Assembly (NCBI GenBank): GCA_017499595.2
Contig: CM039009.1
Location: 1,178,001-1,242,000, forward strand
Length of the DNA: 64,000 nucleotides
Direction of reading: 5' to 3'
DNA from: Psilocybe cubensis
Lineage: Eukaryota
Below the pieces are notes generated by a model. The model was not told the origin of the DNA. It saw only the letters and a program-made list of their open reading frames with translations, and made no database searches. Position numbers and translations under genes: made by a program. Shown here one piece after another: positions 53,962-62,850 of the stretch (positions are counted from its first letter, which is position 1; every line of letters starts with the position of its first letter).

Positions 53962-56900
53962 TCAACTACCAGCAATCCTCCGTGCCCGCCTTGGATTCTG
54001 GTTCTCATCGTCCTCTCCGTTTCCATTTCCGTTGGCATACAACGCCGACGTCGATCGCTGAGCGGTTCTTTCCACTATCGAGGTGCCATCTCGGAAACGT
54101 GCGCGGAAGAGTACGTTGGCATTCGTGAAGAGACCTTCCTTCAAAGACACAACAATGAACTGCGAACCCTTGAACCGTGTGCGGAATAACTGGCCAATGT
54201 GTTGTGTGTGGGACAAATCTAGAGCAGCATCGATTTCGTCAAGGATGTACATCGGTGCAGGCTTGAATTGAAGGAGAGCCATGATAAGGGAAAGAGCGAT
54301 CAGTGACCTGTCGAAACGATACGTCAATTTCATGCTTTTCAAGTAATTCCATTTTTGAACACATACCGCTGTCCTCCACTCAGTTCAGTCAAACTCTGTT
54401 TCCATACGGTACCGAGCTGGACTTTAACTTCCAGACCGTCCATAAGATCTTGCCCATCCGGCGGCTGCAGCTTCGCGAAGTTCCCTGGTAATAGTTCTGC
54501 AAATATATCACCGAAGTCTCTGTGAAAATGAGTCCATGTGCTCAGTCCCATAGCCACGCAAGATAAACATGGCTGTCGACTAACTTGCTAACTTTCTCCC
54601 ATGTTTTCTGCAAGGCATCTCTTTTGTACCGATCGAGTTCCTCGATGGTCTCCTCGATCTTGGTTTTATCTTCGTTCACGATTGCCATGTTCTTCTTGAG
54701 GTCCGTTTCCTTCTTCTCGACGCTGGACATTTTGTGTCAAGTATCCGTGAATTGATTGCGAGAAAGTAACACACCTATCAATCATGTTCATAACCTTCGT
54801 GTTAACCTTCTTCTTGAGACCGTCATGCATGGCTTGAAGTTCCTCAGCCTTTTGACGCAAGCCCAGGAGATCAATGGACTTGAAGTCATACTGTGTTCCT
54901 TCCTTGCCAAATTGACTACGTTTCAGTTAGCCTTCTACATTTCGTAAAAGAAATGTTTCCAACTTACTCTTTGTCTGTCTCAATCCACTCATTTGTAGAT
55001 TCGAGCTTTGAGATGGCGTGGGCAACCTTGTTCTTTTCAGTCATATAGCCTTGAATATCATGATCGAGCTGCTGAGTGTCAAGATCAGCCTGTGTGATCT
55101 GTTCTTTGTGCTTTTTGATATCGCGGTCCAATGCCTTCAGCTCTTCGTCAAAGCGGCTCAAAGTGGCCATCTCCTCCTGCAGCCTTTCCTCAGCTTTTGC
55201 ATGTTCGGCCTACGAGGTCAAAGGCATCGAGACAAGTGACAAAGAAGACGGCAACACATACACATGCAACGTCAGCCACATAAATTTAACGGAGCAACGG
55301 GACGACACACGCACCTCACTGGAAGCGACCTGGTTCACAAGTTTATCAAGCTCTTGATGTAAAGCTTCGATCCCAGCGCGTGCTTCCTCGAGCTGCTCCT
55401 TCTCTCCGGAAATGTCATTCTCGAGTTGCTCTGTGAAAAAACAAAGGGAAACGAAAAAAGCACATGGTGCACGTCAGCGGCAAGTTAAGTGGCGCACGCC
55501 ATCAAAATGAACGGAGATGGAGGGAGTGGGGCAGAGTGGGATAAGTGGGATAAAGATAGCCCATACGGCGTACATACCAAGCTCCATATTGGCGGCCTGA
55601 AGCTCCTTCTGCTGTGTCTTCACAATCACCGAGTTCTTCTGGAGCGCGGTTTTTTGCGCCGCTATATTGACCTGCGCGATAATAGAACAACCACATGTTG
55701 CTGTTAGCTCACGGCATCCCACTTTCACCAAACAGTTGCAATGCAGACCTTGAGTTCCTCAATTTTCCCATCTTTATTGTTCTTGAACTCGTCCATGTCG
55801 CGCTCGAGTTTTTTGCATTCCTCCTTTGCCTCCTGTTGCCGGTCTTTGGCACTCTGGAGGGCCTGACGCAGGTTATCAATAATGCCCTTGACCTTCTCGA
55901 CCTCCCCTGCGATCTAAAAACGCAACACGACAAAATTAACGATTTGTCCATGCAGTGATACGCATCGCAACGAAAAGACTTACGAGAGACGCATTGCTTC
56001 CCCCGACTTGCTCTTGAAGAAGCTTCAGTTCATGCTGTTTGATCTCCAGATCACGTGTGAGGCCCTTCCAATTATTGCGCGCGTTCTGAGTTCGCTGCTC
56101 TTCTTGCATAAGGGTCTGAAGCCTATGCTGGGCCTCCCGGAACTTGTTCTCGACACCAATAAGTTCCTGGACCTGAATGAGTGTCTGTGTCGAGCTAGGC
56201 GCAGACCCGCCGCTGAGGGTCCCGGAAGGATCATACACGTCCCCATCGAGTGTGACGGACTTGACGCCAATCTTGAAGGTGACTTCCTTTGCAGTATTAG
56301 GATCGTCGCAAACGAGGGTGTCGCTAAAGATATAGGCGATAGCTTTAGAAACTTCCTCCTCGTATCCTACGAGAGAAAGCGCTGTGCGGACTTTGCCGGG
56401 GGCGAGTCGAGTGGCAGCTTGAAGTTCCTAGAGAAAAAAATAAGCCAATGAGTCATTGGGGTCGCAATCTAGACACAAACCTGGTTTGCGAGAGTGCGGG
56501 CGTTGATTTTATTTAGAGGAATGAAAGTCACTCGTTTCTTTAAGCGTCCGTTCTTGATGAGGTCTTTGCCGACTTTCTCGTCTTCGATGACGACATTGAA
56601 GAGCTTACCGCCGCCTGCGATTTCTAGAGCAGTGGCTTTGTTGTAGTGCTCTTCAGGAAGAGTGATGAGTTGGGCGGCTACACCTTTCACTTTGCGACGG
56701 TCGAAGTTAGGAGTAGGGTCTTCATAGTCAAAGTTTAGCCTAGGGATTCTGGATTTAACTCGCTCGCGTTGCTATTATTTATAGTGTTAGTGAGTAGTTT
56801 TACAGAGCAAAGACAAAATGTGATCGTACCTCTGCAAGATTTTTACACAAATCTCGCGCCTCTCTCAATTGCCTTTCCAATTCCCTATCCTGCTCTGCGC

Positions 56901-58612
56901 CCCAGCCACAGTTTTTGATCTTACCTTCAAGGCCTTCAACTGCAGCTTGAACATTCTCCAGTTTCTTCATGTTATCCCCGGCCTCTTTAGCAAATGCCTG
57001 CATCTTCTTTTCGAGGTTGGCGAGTTCCTTCTCGTTCATGCTGAGCTTCACCTTGTTCTGCTGCTCCTCGGAGGCAGCCTGAGCGATACGCGCCTTCGCG
57101 TCCGCGAGCTGGCCCATATAGCCTCCGCCCTTGTTCTTTGCATTCGATGAGGAAAGGCCAGTGAGGAGAGTTTGCAAGAGCTCTTCATCAGAGGCAAGCT
57201 TTGTCTCGAACTCTGTGTGCTTGTCCTTGATCTTTGTGAACTGGCTTGAGACCTTTTCGACCTCTTTCTTTTTCTTGGCGTAGATCGCATTCGCCTGAAA
57301 AATGACAATTTGGCATGGTAAACGTATTATGAAGTTATATGCAACACACCTCTTTGAGTTGAGCGTCGAGTGTAACGACTTTCTTTTCCTCCTCTTTAAT
57401 GGTTTCGAGCTTGATTTCCGCCTGTGCACGGATTTTGGCCACCTTTTTGCCCTGTTCGGTAACTTCGTCCTGCAGTTTCTTGAGTTTCCCGCCCTTACTC
57501 ATTTCAGCATCTCGCCTCTTTGTCACACCTGCCATTTCTTTCTCCGCAGCCGTAATTGCCTTTAGCGCTTTCATTTTCTGGGTTTTGATGTCGTCTTGTT
57601 TCTTGTTCGCTGCCAAAATATCCGCCTCATACTTGGCCAACTTTTTCTGCCCGTCTGTCCACTCGTACGCGCGCAACTTCCGACCTATCCGCTCCAGCTC
57701 GCTCACGGACTTCTGGTACGCAATGTACGATCGCTTCTCGGCGCGGAGCTTCTCGAGTTTAGGGGTGATTTCCTCATCCAATATGTTCTGCAGCTCTTCG
57801 ACACGTTTCTCCTTCTTTCCCATCGTTTTTTTGGCTTTGTCTTTGCGCTCCTCGAACATACGTGTCCCGGCGGCTTCTTCGACCATACCGAGAATCTCTT
57901 GGGGGCGCATGTTGAGTACCTAAATTTGTGATGTGAAAGACGTCAGAAGGTGCAAAGGGACAAAGAACGCCAAATACCCAATCACCTTTGTGATACGACC
58001 TTGCATAATCACGAAGTTTGGGTTGTTGATATTGAGTTGAACGGATTGAAAGAGTGATTGGATAGTTGCTTGTTGGGATTTGTGACCATTCAGGAAATAC
58101 TTTGACACATTGGGCAGCGCGATCTGAAATAAAGAGATAACAATTGAGTGGTGTCGGCTACTTGAAAGAGTACACGCACCTGACGAGTAACAGTGATTTG
58201 CTTTTGATCCTGGAAGCCAACAGGGCTATTATCTTTGTCGGAGTTGTCAAAGATGATTGACACGCTGGCTTTGACTACACCAGCCTGGCCACGCTTGTAG
58301 ATTAGGTCCACTTGGTTTGACGCGCGCATCTGGAAGACCAAAACGCGTCAAGAATGAAAACATGATGCAGAAGCAGTTGTTCCATGTACCTGGGACATGT
58401 TTGTAATGCCTAGAACAAAACAAATCGCGTCGAGAATGTTGGATTTGCCAGAGCCATTAAGACCAGTGATGGCGTTGAAAGATGGGTCCCATCCCGTAAT
58501 TGCTGTTCGTACTGGGTACGATTTGAAACCTGGAGAAGTGTAGAATAAGCTTCAAGTGTACAATAGGCGCACAGAAAAGCATACCATCGATTACCAGCTC
58601 TTCTATCCGCAT
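53962..58612 (-). CDS. SMC2: Condensin subunit SMC2 (Cut14), multi-exon
   Basis: [49 protein letters not shown], hinge [10 protein letters not shown] and [10 protein letters not shown], signature [13 protein letters not shown], and Walker [14 protein letters not shown]. Confidence 0.98.
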
Positions 58613-59564
58613 ATCTTGTGGCTAAAGGCAAGCTAGAGTGATGGTTTAAAACGCGCCCGCGTGAGTCATGTGGTTTGTTCCAATGTGTCACGACCCCGGT
58701 CACCCTCTTCAGAAGATATGTGACAAAATTGTTTATTGAGCAGATCTGCGCCAAATAATGCCTTTAGTCATCAAAGCTGGTGAAAGGGGCTGTTTGTTTA
58801 ATCGCAAACCGATTCTCTTCCTTGAGGTGCCCAAGGATTACCGTTATGTGCCGAAATTGATTCTTTTCGTGTGGTATGTGATCATGCGACCCAGATAATT
58901 CCCACAAGTAACTGCCTCATGTTGAACATGCACCCTGTTGCACTGGAACGTTTATGTTTTCTTCATATATTCAACAAATACTCAACATTCACTGATCAAC
59001 CTAAACGTTTTTTGGTTCTTTCTGTGATTATCAGAAGAGATCAGTTGAGTAAATGTTGATTCTGAACTAGTTACATGTTAAAGAAGCTAAGAAATCCTTT
59101 CATGCAGATACTCTGCAATGAATAATATGATATCTCGAACTTATCTACACCATGATTATCTTCCGATATCCAGCACATAGTACATACATTGGTGTAGAAA
59201 GGTGTGCACTTCTCACCTGTGCGTTCTAACAAACCGATTCTTTGTTGTGCGATAATAAACACCTCACAATCGCCATTGAAGCTCTCATCCCAATCTCGTC
59301 CTCTGTTGTCATTTCGGCAGTGACATAATCAATGTCGGCTACGTCAGCGCCTATTTTTCGACTGATCGGTGCATCTTAAATTGGACGCGATCGAGGGAAA
59401 TTACGTGCGGGCCAAATTTAAATTGGTTTTCCTAAAGTGAGACCCCGTACTATATGGATACAAAAGCAATCTTGCCCGCGACTTTTGTTCTACTGGCTTC
59501 ATTCCTCTTATCTCTGAACACTCTCCTTTCATTTCATATTCCCCCTCAGCGACTACGAGCAGCT

Positions 59565-62500
59565 ATGCCGCCTATGGAATTTAGCATCACGTTTGATGAG
59601 GAGGAATTGACTGAATTGTCGAGCGATGAAGAGGACGATGCGCCAATGTCCCTTCCAACACCTAAATCAGCACCTCCGCGGCCAGTCATAACAACGGAGC
59701 CTATTGCCCCTGTAGTCCCAGTAAGAGCAAAGTCGACAAGACCAACGACCCAAAAGGCGACGGAGGACAGTCGAGCCCGAAATAATAAAAGCCCTACGGT
59801 CGTTCCTCCCTTGAAAGTCGGTAGATCGACGACGTATTCTATCTCGAGTCTCTTTGGTACTCCTATCAACATATCTTAACTTTTTCACAACTGATTCTTG
59901 TACCTTCAGAATGGCTTAAAAACGGGCCCGAGTCTCTTGACCTTGAAGCGGATTACCAACGAGGTATGTTATCCTTTGTTTCGAAGTTACCTCTCTACTC
60001 ATACATCATCACTTGCATTGTCAGGAATCGTATGGTCCGACGTTAAGCAGGTTGGACTTATCGACTCCATCTTTACAAACTTCTTTATTCCGCCGCTCGT
60101 GTTCAGTAAGTAAAAGGTTTCAAATGACGACCCAATATTGTACCCATGGATGCTCATATGTAGGCGTCACTTATCATCCGGACGGAAGTGAGAGCAGGGT
60201 GTGCATTGACGGAAAACAACGTTTGACTTCTATTCTCAGGTATGTGCGACAGAAATTGGCATATTCATCTATGAACTGAATGCGAATAGGTTTATGCTCG
60301 GAGAGGTTGGTTTGCATCATTGTTCAACTGGTTGATTTTTCCTGAACAAAGCTACCTTTGACATGCATTTTTGTGTGCGATAGATCCATTGTGAGTATTT
60401 TTTTCGCCTTCCGCGTTATGATATGATATTAAATAAAACCAAATTTTAGTTTGGGACCGGTGCGATCGTTTGTAGTTTATGATCAATAAACCCCTCTCAT
60501 TATATTGTCAGACATCAACAGAAAAGAGTTTTCTATCGATCAGCACCTGGAAAACGGCGAAAAGTTCTTGACGACAAAATACGCAAAACTTTCGACCAGA
60601 AGCAGTTAATGTGTTACGAATACGAGTCAGTGACCCCTGAACAAGAGCGAGAGATTTTTCATGTGCGTCGTCAGCCTTTTTCGTTTCAAAATCAAACTTT
60701 TCATGCCGCGTGATTGACTATTTTCAATTTGATAGCGTGTGCAGCTCGGAATGGCCCTTGGACCTGCAGGTGTGTGGCGTAATATCGTACTAAGGAACTA
60801 TGCTTCTCATGAAACTTAATCAACAGATCGACTACCTGCAATCAATGGATCATACGCCGACCTCGTTCGCGCATTACGCTTGAAGATGGAAAGCACCGAA
60901 GGGTTTAGTCATTTCAGCAATGAATCCCGCGGCAAAGATTTCCAGGCCCTCGCGCAAATCGTATACATGATCGAAGAAGGCCTCACAAAAAAGACTTGCG
61001 ACGCGACGACAAAGTACCTCGAAATATTCCTTGCGAAACAAGGCGTCGACACACGGGCGTTGGAAGCAAAGGTTCATTCCGCGATAGACCTCTTTGTCAG
61101 AATCCTTCAAGACCCCGATCTTTCGCTGCCGTTGTTGGAATACCCAATGTGCTCTATGGAATTTGTTATGACGGTGTATCTTGTGCACCTTCATCGGTCT
61201 TTCTCACTGGAACATCTCTCTGTTGCCATTCGCTTCATGCGGCACCATTGGTTCACTGCACTGACCAAAAAATTATTTACCAAGGCGGACACCAAGGCGT
61301 TCTTGCACCTAGCAAACTTCGTGAAAACAATCACAAAGACAAAGGTGATGGATTGGGCAAATCATACACAACCTGTCCTTGTGCACCCCAAAGGCACAAA
61401 TAAACGCGGCAGGGCAAAGACAGCCGAGGACAATGAATCTGTACTCATGACGAAAACACCCGGAAGAAAGAGAAAGGTGGAAGATGACGACGAGGACGAA
61501 GATTCTGATGACGAGTGTCAGAAGATTTCACGACCCAGGAAGAAATTGACTACGACTGTCAAGAAGCAGGGAACAGTGACGCCGGCCTCGACGCCTGCTC
61601 CCACTCCTGCCCCGGATGCGGACAAACTCAAGATGAAGATCGAAAAGGCTATATCATCGACAAGGAAAGCGAAGACGACGATCAAGAGAGTATCGCCGAC
61701 AAAACGTAAATCCGTTCCGGTACCCACCGCGTTTGCTGCAAAACCTTCTCGCTCTGGAAGTGTGCTGAATCAGGTTGCGAAACCGTCCATCAAACCTGGC
61801 CAGCGCAGCGTGTCGGCATCGACGCCTCAGCCCTGTGATCCATTTGGGCCACTTGATTTTTCGCCATCTGTATCTAGAGCCTCGTCCACTACGTCTACTT
61901 CACGTCTTCCTCCTGCCGCTGGAGATGCTGCTCCAAGCGCAGGTGTTAAACCTCCCATTTCGGTGGCCCAAACAGCAACGACAGCGCCGGCAACACCCAT
62001 AGCACCAACTACACCAACAGTACCAATAGTACCAACAGCACCAACAGCACCGATCAACACTCCAGTCGCGTTCGGAGGCATTGCCACCCCGAGAGCGTCT
62101 CCGATGACATACGAAACTCAGATTGTCAGTGCAAGTGCCGGTCTCGCCTCGCCTCCCCCTTCTTCAGCGTCATCTTCTGCGATGGACGACGGCCACCGGT
62201 TGGCGCCGCTCAGACGCGCACAAGCTGCTGACAGACTCGGAAACAGAGGCTCGTTCAGTGACAGCGCGTCGTCGTCGATGCCTCCGTTATCTGAACTGCT
62301 AGGACGTAGACAATCGTCGGACAGCTCGGGTTCTTCTATTCCTATGTCAGGTAGTTCTGGAAGCACATTGCCCGGCAAGCGTTCGTTCTCGGCGCCGAAT
62401 GCTACCACAAATGGCGACGCCGCACCTGCTCAAGTTGTTTCTACGAGCACACCCACAAACTCAATGTCGGGCCCAGAGATGGAAGCCTATCTGCTATGCC

Positions 62501-62850
62501 AGCAACGCCCAGTTAACAACAACATTCACAGCCATGCAAATGGGGTTCCAAAGCACCCTCAGGCGGCCCCGCAATCTCCTCCCAGCGACCCACGACTGCG
62601 CGTGCAAGTTCAGCGCGAATCGTCGAGCGTTGTAAAGACGAGTACCGAGAGTAGGCTGCCCACGCCGCCACAGTCTGGGCAGTCGCCGCAGGTCTCGCAG
62701 GAACAATTGTTTGCGAGGCCAACGCATACACATGAGCAGATGACGACGGCAACAGCTGCTGCTGGGATTTCGCCATCTGCGCGGGTTTGGCCTGGCCAGA
62801 CTGGACCTCAACATCCGTATCCTGTTCCAGGGGATCGTAATAACAGATAA
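59565..62850 (+). CDS. DUF262 (GmrSD N-terminal, ParB/Srx-like NTPase fold) domain protein with long disordered C-terminus, about 900 aa, 10 exons
   Basis: Spliced product has LDLEADYQRGIVW, GLIDSIFTNFFIPP, VCIDGKQRLTSI and EREIFHRVQLGMAL, matching the DUF262 motif series. GT-AG introns with 7-nt (60384-60390) and 10-nt (60450-60459) exons keep frame into ORF 60880-62850. Confidence 0.85.
62002..62052 (+). repeat. 9-bp coding tandem repeat encoding (A/T/V)P(T/I)
   Basis: gcaccaact acaccaaca gtaccaata gtaccaaca gcaccaaca gcaccg. Confidence 0.8.

Follow-up and report, generated by a model that had tools for sequence, protein, structure and literature searches.

A resident, nuclease-less ParB-DUF262 gene of Psilocybe cubensis beside the condensin gene SMC2

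DUF262 modules serve as sensors in bacterial anti-phage systems, where they arm nucleases. Three motifs have been published for them, QRxxxW, DGxQR and FxxxN, and the segment that follows DUF262 was named ParBDB by Li et al. (2025), who describe eight conserved helices in it and cite the requirement of SspE-M for DNA binding (PMC12065111). In BrxU, a change of the Q or the R in DGQQR abolishes hydrolysis, and residue S42 of the RLFDS motif governs an ATP-driven change from dimer to monomer (PMC8565348). The ParB fold binds cytidine, adenosine or guanosine triphosphate (CTP, ATP or GTP), depending on the family (PMC12704722). We analysed a gene with this type of domain in the mushroom Psilocybe cubensis, located at positions 59565-62850 on the plus strand of a 64,000-nucleotide stretch of contig CM039009.1 (GCA_017499595.2, positions 1,178,001 to 1,242,000), the whole of which is called the window here. 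The gene is resident in the fungus and expressed, and it encodes a nuclease-less ParB-DUF262/ParBDB module followed by a tail that bears short motifs. The sensor pair of ParB-DUF262 and ParBDB persists in this form, free of a nuclease, as a conserved, spliced and expressed family of mushroom-forming fungi.

The gene is already annotated by domain in UniRef, where its 902-amino-acid P. cubensis entry (P0001) is named 'GmrSD restriction endonucleases N-terminal domain-containing protein', and it belongs to a large, multi-copy family of Agaricomycetes. A preliminary description, drawn from the sequence alone, had known of no established function for fungal DUF262 proteins, and our full-text searches (DUF262 with fungi or condensin, PF03235, ParBDB) agree with it, having returned no paper on the subject from the library used. 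The word stem 'fung' is absent from the GmrSD phylogenomics paper, and a 2025 survey of the ParB-CTPase fold, whose authors used PF02195 for their search, mentions neither DUF262 nor fungi (PMC12704722). Since no paper on the family was found in that library, it counts as a prokaryotic immune module whose reuse in eukaryotes has yet to be studied. To judge from these searches, four points have not appeared in print: the domain type of the helical region, an architecture like that of NsnA, the set of tail motifs and the linkage to SMC2.

The folded module, its relatives and the tail

The ParB-fold DUF262 domain covers residues 86-235 of the 914-amino-acid protein. In the Pfam search, P0001 matched PF03235 (GmrSD_N/DUF262) with 58.7 bits against a gathering threshold of 33.2 (E 1.1e-15, residues 99-197), and the same domain was matched in six of eight close relatives and in 36 of 38 further relatives. 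Motif I, QRGIVW, lies at residues 114-119 (59957-60035, across intron 2), motif II, DGKQR, at residues 158-162 (60208-60222) and motif III, FHRVQLG, at residues 228-234 (60657-60750, across intron 8). The DUF262 identity and the three intact motifs spread over several exons were both part of the preliminary description, and both hold. Between the first two motifs, GLIDS (60054-60068) is the counterpart of the nucleotide-binding RLFDS motif of BrxU.

Across the family, the motifs take the forms QRxxxW, DGKQR and FxRVQxG. Set against the published bacterial consensus, QRxxxW is present, as is DGxQR, the nucleotide-binding centre, with K for Q as its substitution. Motif III keeps the spacing of FxxxN yet reads F-H-R-V-Q, so that an invariant Q replaces the N, with the amide retained and one more carbon. 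Over the 95 family sequences compared, motif II has four invariant residues (D, G, Q and R) and motif III has three (F, Q and G). Conservation is at least 90% for the Y, Q, R and W in motif I, for the S in GLIDS and for the K in DGKQR. This degree of conservation fits a nucleotide-binding role of the domain.

No DUF1524, HNH, PF07510 or other nuclease domain was detected in P0001 at E≤0.1 in Pfam, where PF03235 was the sole match, and none of the 38 relatives, the longest included, contained DUF1524, a nuclease or any other credible domain at E≤0.001. The protein is therefore nuclease-less, as had been proposed. NCBIfam gave zero matches for P0001. The canonical ParB family PF02195 was not matched, and neither the helix-turn-helix parS-binding domain nor the C-terminal dimerisation domain of ParB was found with Pfam.

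The DUF262 domain is followed by a helical domain of about 180 residues with eight main helices (residues 242-420, 60829-61365). An AlphaFold2 model of a 333-amino-acid piece containing both domains had a mean predicted local distance difference test score (pLDDT) of 91.4, and the helical part alone reached 91.2, so the region previously noted as helical-looking is predicted to be a genuine, confidently folded domain. Foldseek returned no match at E≤0.001, the best being BrxU at 1.9e-3, after which VIA-align was used for the structural comparison, with the whole model set against 48,161 representative chains without a pre-filter. The top matches were BrxU (Z 7.9), 9jfl_A, from a DndBCDE-DndI entry (7.5), PadC (7.2) and SspE (7.0). 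Residues 1-138 of the model superpose on the nucleotide-bound ParB 7o0n_A (Z 7.8, root-mean-square deviation 2.8 Å, 89 aligned residues), as well as on Noc, KorB and PadC, and more weakly on sulfiredoxin. The likeness to SspE, GmrSD-type proteins and ParB that had been suggested for verification by structure is recovered by VIA-align.

Compared on its own with the same 48,161 chains, the helical domain matched BrxU 249-518 (Z 7.2, 163 aligned), 9jfl_A 238-506 (Z 6.7, 164 aligned), the SspE C-terminal domain entry (Z 6.0, 167 aligned) and SspE itself (Z 5.8, 167 aligned), the SspE stretch being 330-604. These four were the only whole-domain matches, the remaining ones spanning 56-127 model residues, and the matched stretches of BrxU, 9jfl_A and SspE are precisely the segments that follow DUF262 in those proteins. 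The helical region is consequently predicted to be a ParBDB-type DNA-binding domain. The Z-scores are modest, and the assignment rests on the identity and length of the matches rather than on the size of Z.

Among described systems, the folded part most closely resembles NsnA, the nuclease-less sensor of the Menshen (NsnABC) anti-phage system (PMC12065111). NsnA was the best PADLOC match of P0001 (E 1.2e-15), with PD-T4-2_A as the other top match in the defence library, and P0067, a second P. cubensis member of the family, covers positions 48-333 of the 385 in the NsnA profile. Both NsnA and, as predicted, the window protein have a core of two domains, ParB-DUF262 and then an eight-helix ParBDB domain, with no nuclease in the same chain. 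The window protein differs in being eukaryotic, spliced and monocistronic, and in having an acidic N-terminal motif, a tail of about 490 residues and the DGKQR and FxRVQxG forms of the motifs. Furthermore, the NsnA operon contains the ATP-binding cassette (ABC) ATPase NsnB and the effector NsnC, whereas the upstream neighbour of the window gene is SMC2, on the opposite strand (NsnB and NsnC were not sought elsewhere).

The N-terminal domain belongs to the same family, PF03235, as that of GmrSD and BrxU (PDB 7p9k, 7p9m), and BrxU was the top structural match (Z 7.9-8.4 for the whole model). The window protein, however, has neither a DUF1524/HNH domain nor the DHIYP motif, so it is not a restriction enzyme of the GmrSD/BrxU type, and its predicted architecture comes nearest to that of NsnA. 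In SspE and the DndI-system protein (PDB 6jiv, 7dri, 9jfl), DUF262 is likewise followed by a helical domain, and the structural matches extend over both domains, but those proteins carry C-terminal nuclease or effector parts and sense DNA phosphorothioation. With the CTPase clamps ParB, Noc and KorB, the N-terminal domain has its fold in common. Canonical ParB proteins have the CTP-binding box GERRxR, and they differ from the window protein in possessing PF02195 and the parS-binding and dimerisation domains.

Residues 425-914 (61378-62847) form a tail of about 490 amino acids, of which S, P, A and T make up 48%. Its low complexity and poor alignment among orthologues agree with the long disordered tail of the preliminary description, the disorder itself being judged from these two properties. 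A conserved basic cluster followed by an acidic run, GRKRKVEDDDEDEDSDDE (61462-61515, plus strand), resembles a nuclear localisation signal (NLS). Of 116 family proteins with 600 or more amino acids, 100 have a basic 4-mer a short way behind the helical domain, and the tail holds five basic clusters against 1.08 in shuffled sequences, with five reached in 0.3% of shuffles. The two NLS-like strings reported earlier, KRKVE and RPRKK, are present in the protein. In the same set of 116 proteins, an acidic N-terminal motif of the form 'LTEL + acidic serines' was found in 81, represented in exon 1 of the window gene by the conserved EEELTELSSDEEDD (59598-59639, plus strand), and the pattern RL[AGS]x[LIVM][RK]xA in 48, represented in the tail by the conserved short motif RLAPLRRA (62197-62220, plus strand). 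The clade of the window protein has an AKT(T/V)VK-like motif of its own (9 of 11).

The protein had also been credited with features of a substrate of cyclin-dependent kinases (CDK) on account of TPGR (residue 451) and SPTK (residue 530). Both sites exist, but two full CDK sites are what chance gives (1.84 ± 1.3 in shuffles, with two reached in 56% of 2000 shuffles). TPGR is kept in no aligned orthologue and SPxK only in Flammula and P. cyanescens. Given this chance-level count and poor conservation, the CDK-substrate feature is unsupported.

Distribution of the family and linkage to SMC2

A HMMER scan of 1.84 billion representatives retrieved 2419 proteins at E≤0.001, 719 at E≤1e-10 and 209 at E≤1e-30, and most of the best 150 matches cover both folded domains. 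A profile search, in which 8000 candidates were scored, gave 1690 proteins at E≤1e-8. Among the 120 matches listed, those with a name all came from Agaricomycetes, save for Entrophospora. The Entrophospora protein (P0014, 603 amino acids, two DUF262 stretches) had the best profile score of all, and Rhizophagus clarus contributed one further member from Glomeromycota. With P0014 as a member, the family extends beyond Agaricomycetes. No Ascomycota were seen among the matches listed, which is no evidence that Ascomycota lack the family. The fungal-type motif pattern gave ten matches in prokaryotes (185,579 species), none of them a relative, although the pattern is fungal-specific and distant bacterial relatives could escape it.

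The family is multi-copy. The second P. cubensis member, P0067, has 619 amino acids and is 37% identical to the window protein, and seven members (P0175, P0051, P0180, P0184, P0207, P0220 and P0223) lie on one 475,947-bp contig of Coprinopsis, which points to local expansion. The window gene itself has collinear orthologues in Agaricales. Its product shares only 40% identity with that of P. cyanescens and sits on the longest branch of its subclade. A transposon origin was considered and rejected, given the gene's single copy in the window, its introns and the collinear orthologues. These orthologues, together with nine introns, splicing confirmed by RNA for introns 3-9 and a large family that includes Glomeromycota, confirm the earlier view of the gene as a resident eukaryotic one. 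As a separate observation, the gene models of two Mycena relatives (P0208 and P0215) join PF03235 to amidohydrolase/guanine-deaminase domains (PF07969, PF01979), through either true fusion or the merging of neighbouring genes.

Upstream of the DUF262 gene, on the minus strand, tblastn with P0248, an SMC2 protein of P. cubensis, located a complete, many-intron gene for this condensin subunit at 53962-58612. P0248 is 98% identical over the window exon used as query, indicating that it comes from another strain. The two genes stand head to head with their start codons 952 bp apart, an orientation established in the window only. An SMC2 exon was then used as a query, and the identifiers of its matches were compared with those of family members. 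SMC2 and a family member had consecutive identifiers in seven species besides P. cubensis, in three orders. Consecutive locus tags were found in Agrocybe pediades (D9613_009303/009304) and Phlebia brevispora (NM688_g1792/g1793), and consecutive accessions in Sparassis crispa (GBE85556/GBE85557), Somion occarium (CAL1701766-68 / CAL1701769-70), Grifola frondosa (OBZ73327/OBZ73328), Russula earlei (KAI9507223/KAI9507224) and Flammula alnicola (KAF8966104/KAF8966105). Panaeolus cyanescens has the pair on a 55-kb contig, at a distance of four locus tags. All these species belong to Agaricales, Polyporales or Russulales (order checked for four of them, P. cubensis included).

Equal size of the longest contig was used as a proxy for location on the same contig. 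By this measure, SMC2 and at least one family member were on contigs of equal size in 24 of the 35 species present in both lists (hand count), with contigs as small as 22, 55, 116 and 128 kb among them. The sizes differed in the other 11 (Athelia, Rhodofomes, Hohenbuehelia, Abortiporus, Lentinus tigrinus, Crepidotus, Dichomitus, Trametes cinnabarina, Panus, Botryobasidium and Tricholoma furcatifolium). Two family members lie on the SMC2 contig in each of Grifola, Trametes, Lenzites and Rickenella. For Rickenella mellea, the accession of SMC2 is 30 away from that of the family member, and for the second Grifola paralogue the accession order departs from the locus-tag order, so accessions are not always positional.

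In a FastTree phylogeny of 225 domain sequences, the members with identifiers consecutive to SMC2 all fell into two clades, of 13 and 35 tips. The first, clade A, holds the window protein and other Agaricales; the second is referred to as clade B. Median lengths in these two long-tailed clades were 843 and 852 amino acids, against 589 in the other 177 tips, and 19 of their 20 entries with contig information were on the SMC2 contig. The two clades are not sisters in this tree, so a single clade of SMC2-adjacent members was not recovered, but the deep nodes are weak (support 0.23-0.82). SMC2 was found in none of 80 metagenome loci with family members (tblastn, E≤1e-5). The best matches of these loci were never in clade A; 11 of the 80 were to P0024, P0030, P0162 and P0164 of clade B (30-36% identity) and the rest to other paralogue clades. 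The 80 loci are no test of the SMC2-linked lineage. A shared cell-cycle box was also rejected as a candidate, since ACGCG occurs three times in the 952-bp intergenic region, about its density across the window (110 occurrences against 88 ± 11 expected). To the extent of our searches, the adjacency of the long-tailed lineage to SMC2 is new and not in print. A functional link to condensin is possible.

Proposed function and rival readings

The reading we favour, with moderate confidence, is that the protein is a nuclear, nucleoside triphosphate (NTP)-gated DNA-binding module without a nuclease, which recruits partners via its tail. By analogy with the bacterial relatives BrxU, SspE and NsnA, the two folded domains would bind DNA. 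Binding and hydrolysis of NTP at the DGKQR/GLIDS site would alter the oligomeric or DNA-bound state, the basic NLS-like cluster would carry the protein to the nucleus, and the output would be partner recruitment via the tail motifs, not cleavage. That the protein hydrolyses NTP, binds DNA, resides in the nucleus and recruits partners is in each case inferred. As to the partner, the conserved neighbourhood suggests condensin, and the bacterial relatives and the expansions suggest a genome-defence effector.

Several observations weigh against this proposal. The fold Z-scores (5.8-8.4) lie in a range that the tool calls middling, above all for helical domains. A profile search of the PDB sequences recovered no DUF262 structure, its 12 matches at E≤1 all falling in the low-complexity tail. 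Owing to K for Q in motif II and Q for N in motif III, nucleotide preference or turnover may differ from that of the bacterial proteins. Finally, tail disorder was judged solely from composition and poor alignment.

The defence role of the described relatives raises the alternative of a sensor for DNA that is foreign or modified, with transposons, mycoviruses and oxidised methylcytosine as examples, which would trigger, via its tail, a separately encoded effector. The characterised relatives are all defence sensors (PMC12065111, PMC8565348), and NsnA and PD-T4-2_A are the best matches in the defence library. A defence function would also agree with the multi-copy, locally expanded family, as seen in P0067, the seven members on the Coprinopsis contig and the 1690 proteins of the profile search, and with the divergence of the window copy. 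The long-tailed lineage, however, behaves like a conserved orthologue with a fixed place by a housekeeping gene, unlike a mobile defence island; the 38 relatives showed no effector domain, and no transposon features were found, the window holding one copy. We regard this sensor as unlikely for the window protein. An ATP-dependent enzyme whose substrate is not DNA but a protein or small molecule, as for sulfiredoxin and SerK, or a scaffold with a dead site, would fit the superposition of the N-terminal domain on sulfiredoxin 3hy2_X (Z 5.7, 85 aligned), the variety of nucleotides taken by the ParB fold in different families (PMC12704722) and the departures of motifs II and III from the bacterial consensus. 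Against this stand the stronger matches to ParB, BrxU and SspE, the attached ParBDB-like domain, which points to DNA, and the invariance of motif residues in 95 sequences, which argues against a dead site. Such an enzyme or scaffold seems very improbable.

In bacteria, ParB-like proteins load SMC complexes; for the condensin of eukaryotes, no partner with a ParB fold is known to us. Bacterial ParB has SMC as its partner, the window gene adjoins SMC2, and this linkage, seen for one lineage over three orders, is a concrete, testable lead. Were the long-tailed lineage to act with condensin, its folded module would mark or clamp DNA and its tail would dock condensin subunits. The head-to-head arrangement, the consecutive identifiers in seven other species and the concentration of SMC2 contigs in the long-tailed clades favour such a role, as does an analogy drawn by Li et al., who liken ParB-SMC to NsnA-NsnB, NsnB being an SMC-like ATPase (PMC12065111). 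Adjacency, however, is not interaction, and the background rate at which neighbour pairs are retained across orders has no control. The orientation comes from the window only, Rickenella mellea and the 11 species with differing contigs depart from the pattern, same-contig calls use a size proxy, and accession order in Grifola is not positional. The 80 metagenome loci held no SMC2, though their best matches lay outside clade A, and the intergenic region has no shared cell-cycle promoter signal, with ACGCG at average density. We therefore consider a condensin-linked factor improbable on present evidence. Its extended version is speculative and also doubtful: the long-tailed protein, as an NTP-gated DNA-binding module that stays next to SMC2 across Agaricomycetes, would be a eukaryotic counterpart of the ParB-SMC partnership, regulating or recruiting condensin via its tail, and the shorter, expanded paralogues would be offshoots engaged in genome conflict. 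Should the linkage prove to be retained synteny and nothing more, the family would remain useful as a tractable model of nuclease-less DUF262 function, for which the NTP-gated DNA-binding module described above is our preferred account.

Gene structure, transcript support and variation

The gene runs from an ATG at 59565 to a stop codon ending at 62850, exactly the extent given in the preliminary description, and comprises 10 exons on the plus strand, separated by nine GT..AG introns of 50-78 nt, as derived from the sequence and its splice signals. Exon 1 (59565-59856) encodes residues 1-97 plus 1 nt, with the acidic N-terminal motif and the start of DUF262. Motif I begins in exon 2 (59910-59963) and is completed in exon 3 (60025-60105), which also encodes GLIDS, and motif II lies in exon 4 (60164-60239). 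Three very short exons follow, namely exon 5 of 16 nt (60290-60305) and the micro-exons 6 and 7 of 7 nt (60384-60390) and 10 nt (60450-60459). Motif III starts in exon 8 (60512-60662) and ends in exon 9 (60736-60769). Exon 10 (60827-62850) carries the helical ParBDB-like domain, the tail and the stop codon.

Transcript evidence came from run X1, labelled 'RNA?' and not on record as RNA, whose RNA nature was read from its spliced contigs; runs X3-X5, from another strain, consist of DNA contigs that lack splicing and are uninformative on expression. A spliced X1 contig, which includes exon 4, has joints 60105>60164 and 60662>60736, the latter at the end of a piece covering 60511-60662. Its joint 60241>60511 is bridged by 30 letters that equal exactly exon 5 and the two micro-exons, of 7 and 10 nt. 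In a second X1 contig, a loose end at 60824 coincides with the end of exon 9. By these joints, the bridge and the loose end, introns 3-9 are supported by RNA, whereas introns 1 and 2 lie outside the coverage, so the exon chain proposed earlier is confirmed for all but its first two introns. The two consecutive micro-exons, both in the spliced contig and also used in P0001, are set among introns of 78, 59 and 52 nt.

The last exon is 100% identical to P0001, and the sole difference between our model and that database entry is at intron 1, where P0001 uses an earlier donor and has 12-13 residues fewer. The dropped stretch, GRSTTYSISSLF in exon 1, corresponds to the first strand and helix of DUF262 and is kept in the orthologues of Pholiota, Hypholoma, P. 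subviscida and P. cyanescens, for which reason we chose the donor at 59857 (GTACTC). The P0001 model is probably wrong at this intron (window 59820-59910), an annotation error.

Ahead of the start codon, the 5' untranslated region extends at least over 59444-59564, within an RNA contig that covers 59444-59754. Upstream, a further ATG at 59454 shares the reading frame of the start codon and would add 37 mostly hydrophobic residues. This N-terminal extension was rejected, as the orthologues begin at MPP... and a 1-nt insertion behind 59521 in all four runs breaks the frame; the ATG is more likely that of a short upstream open reading frame in the leader.

Within the tail, a P/T/A-rich stretch is encoded by nine copies of a 9-nt tandem repeat (61971-62051, plus strand) that varies between strains, and at this repeat the DNA contigs of X3-X5 fragment into many short variants. 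A 3-nt insertion (CGT) follows position 62266 in runs X1, X4 and X5. The tail is length-polymorphic within the species.

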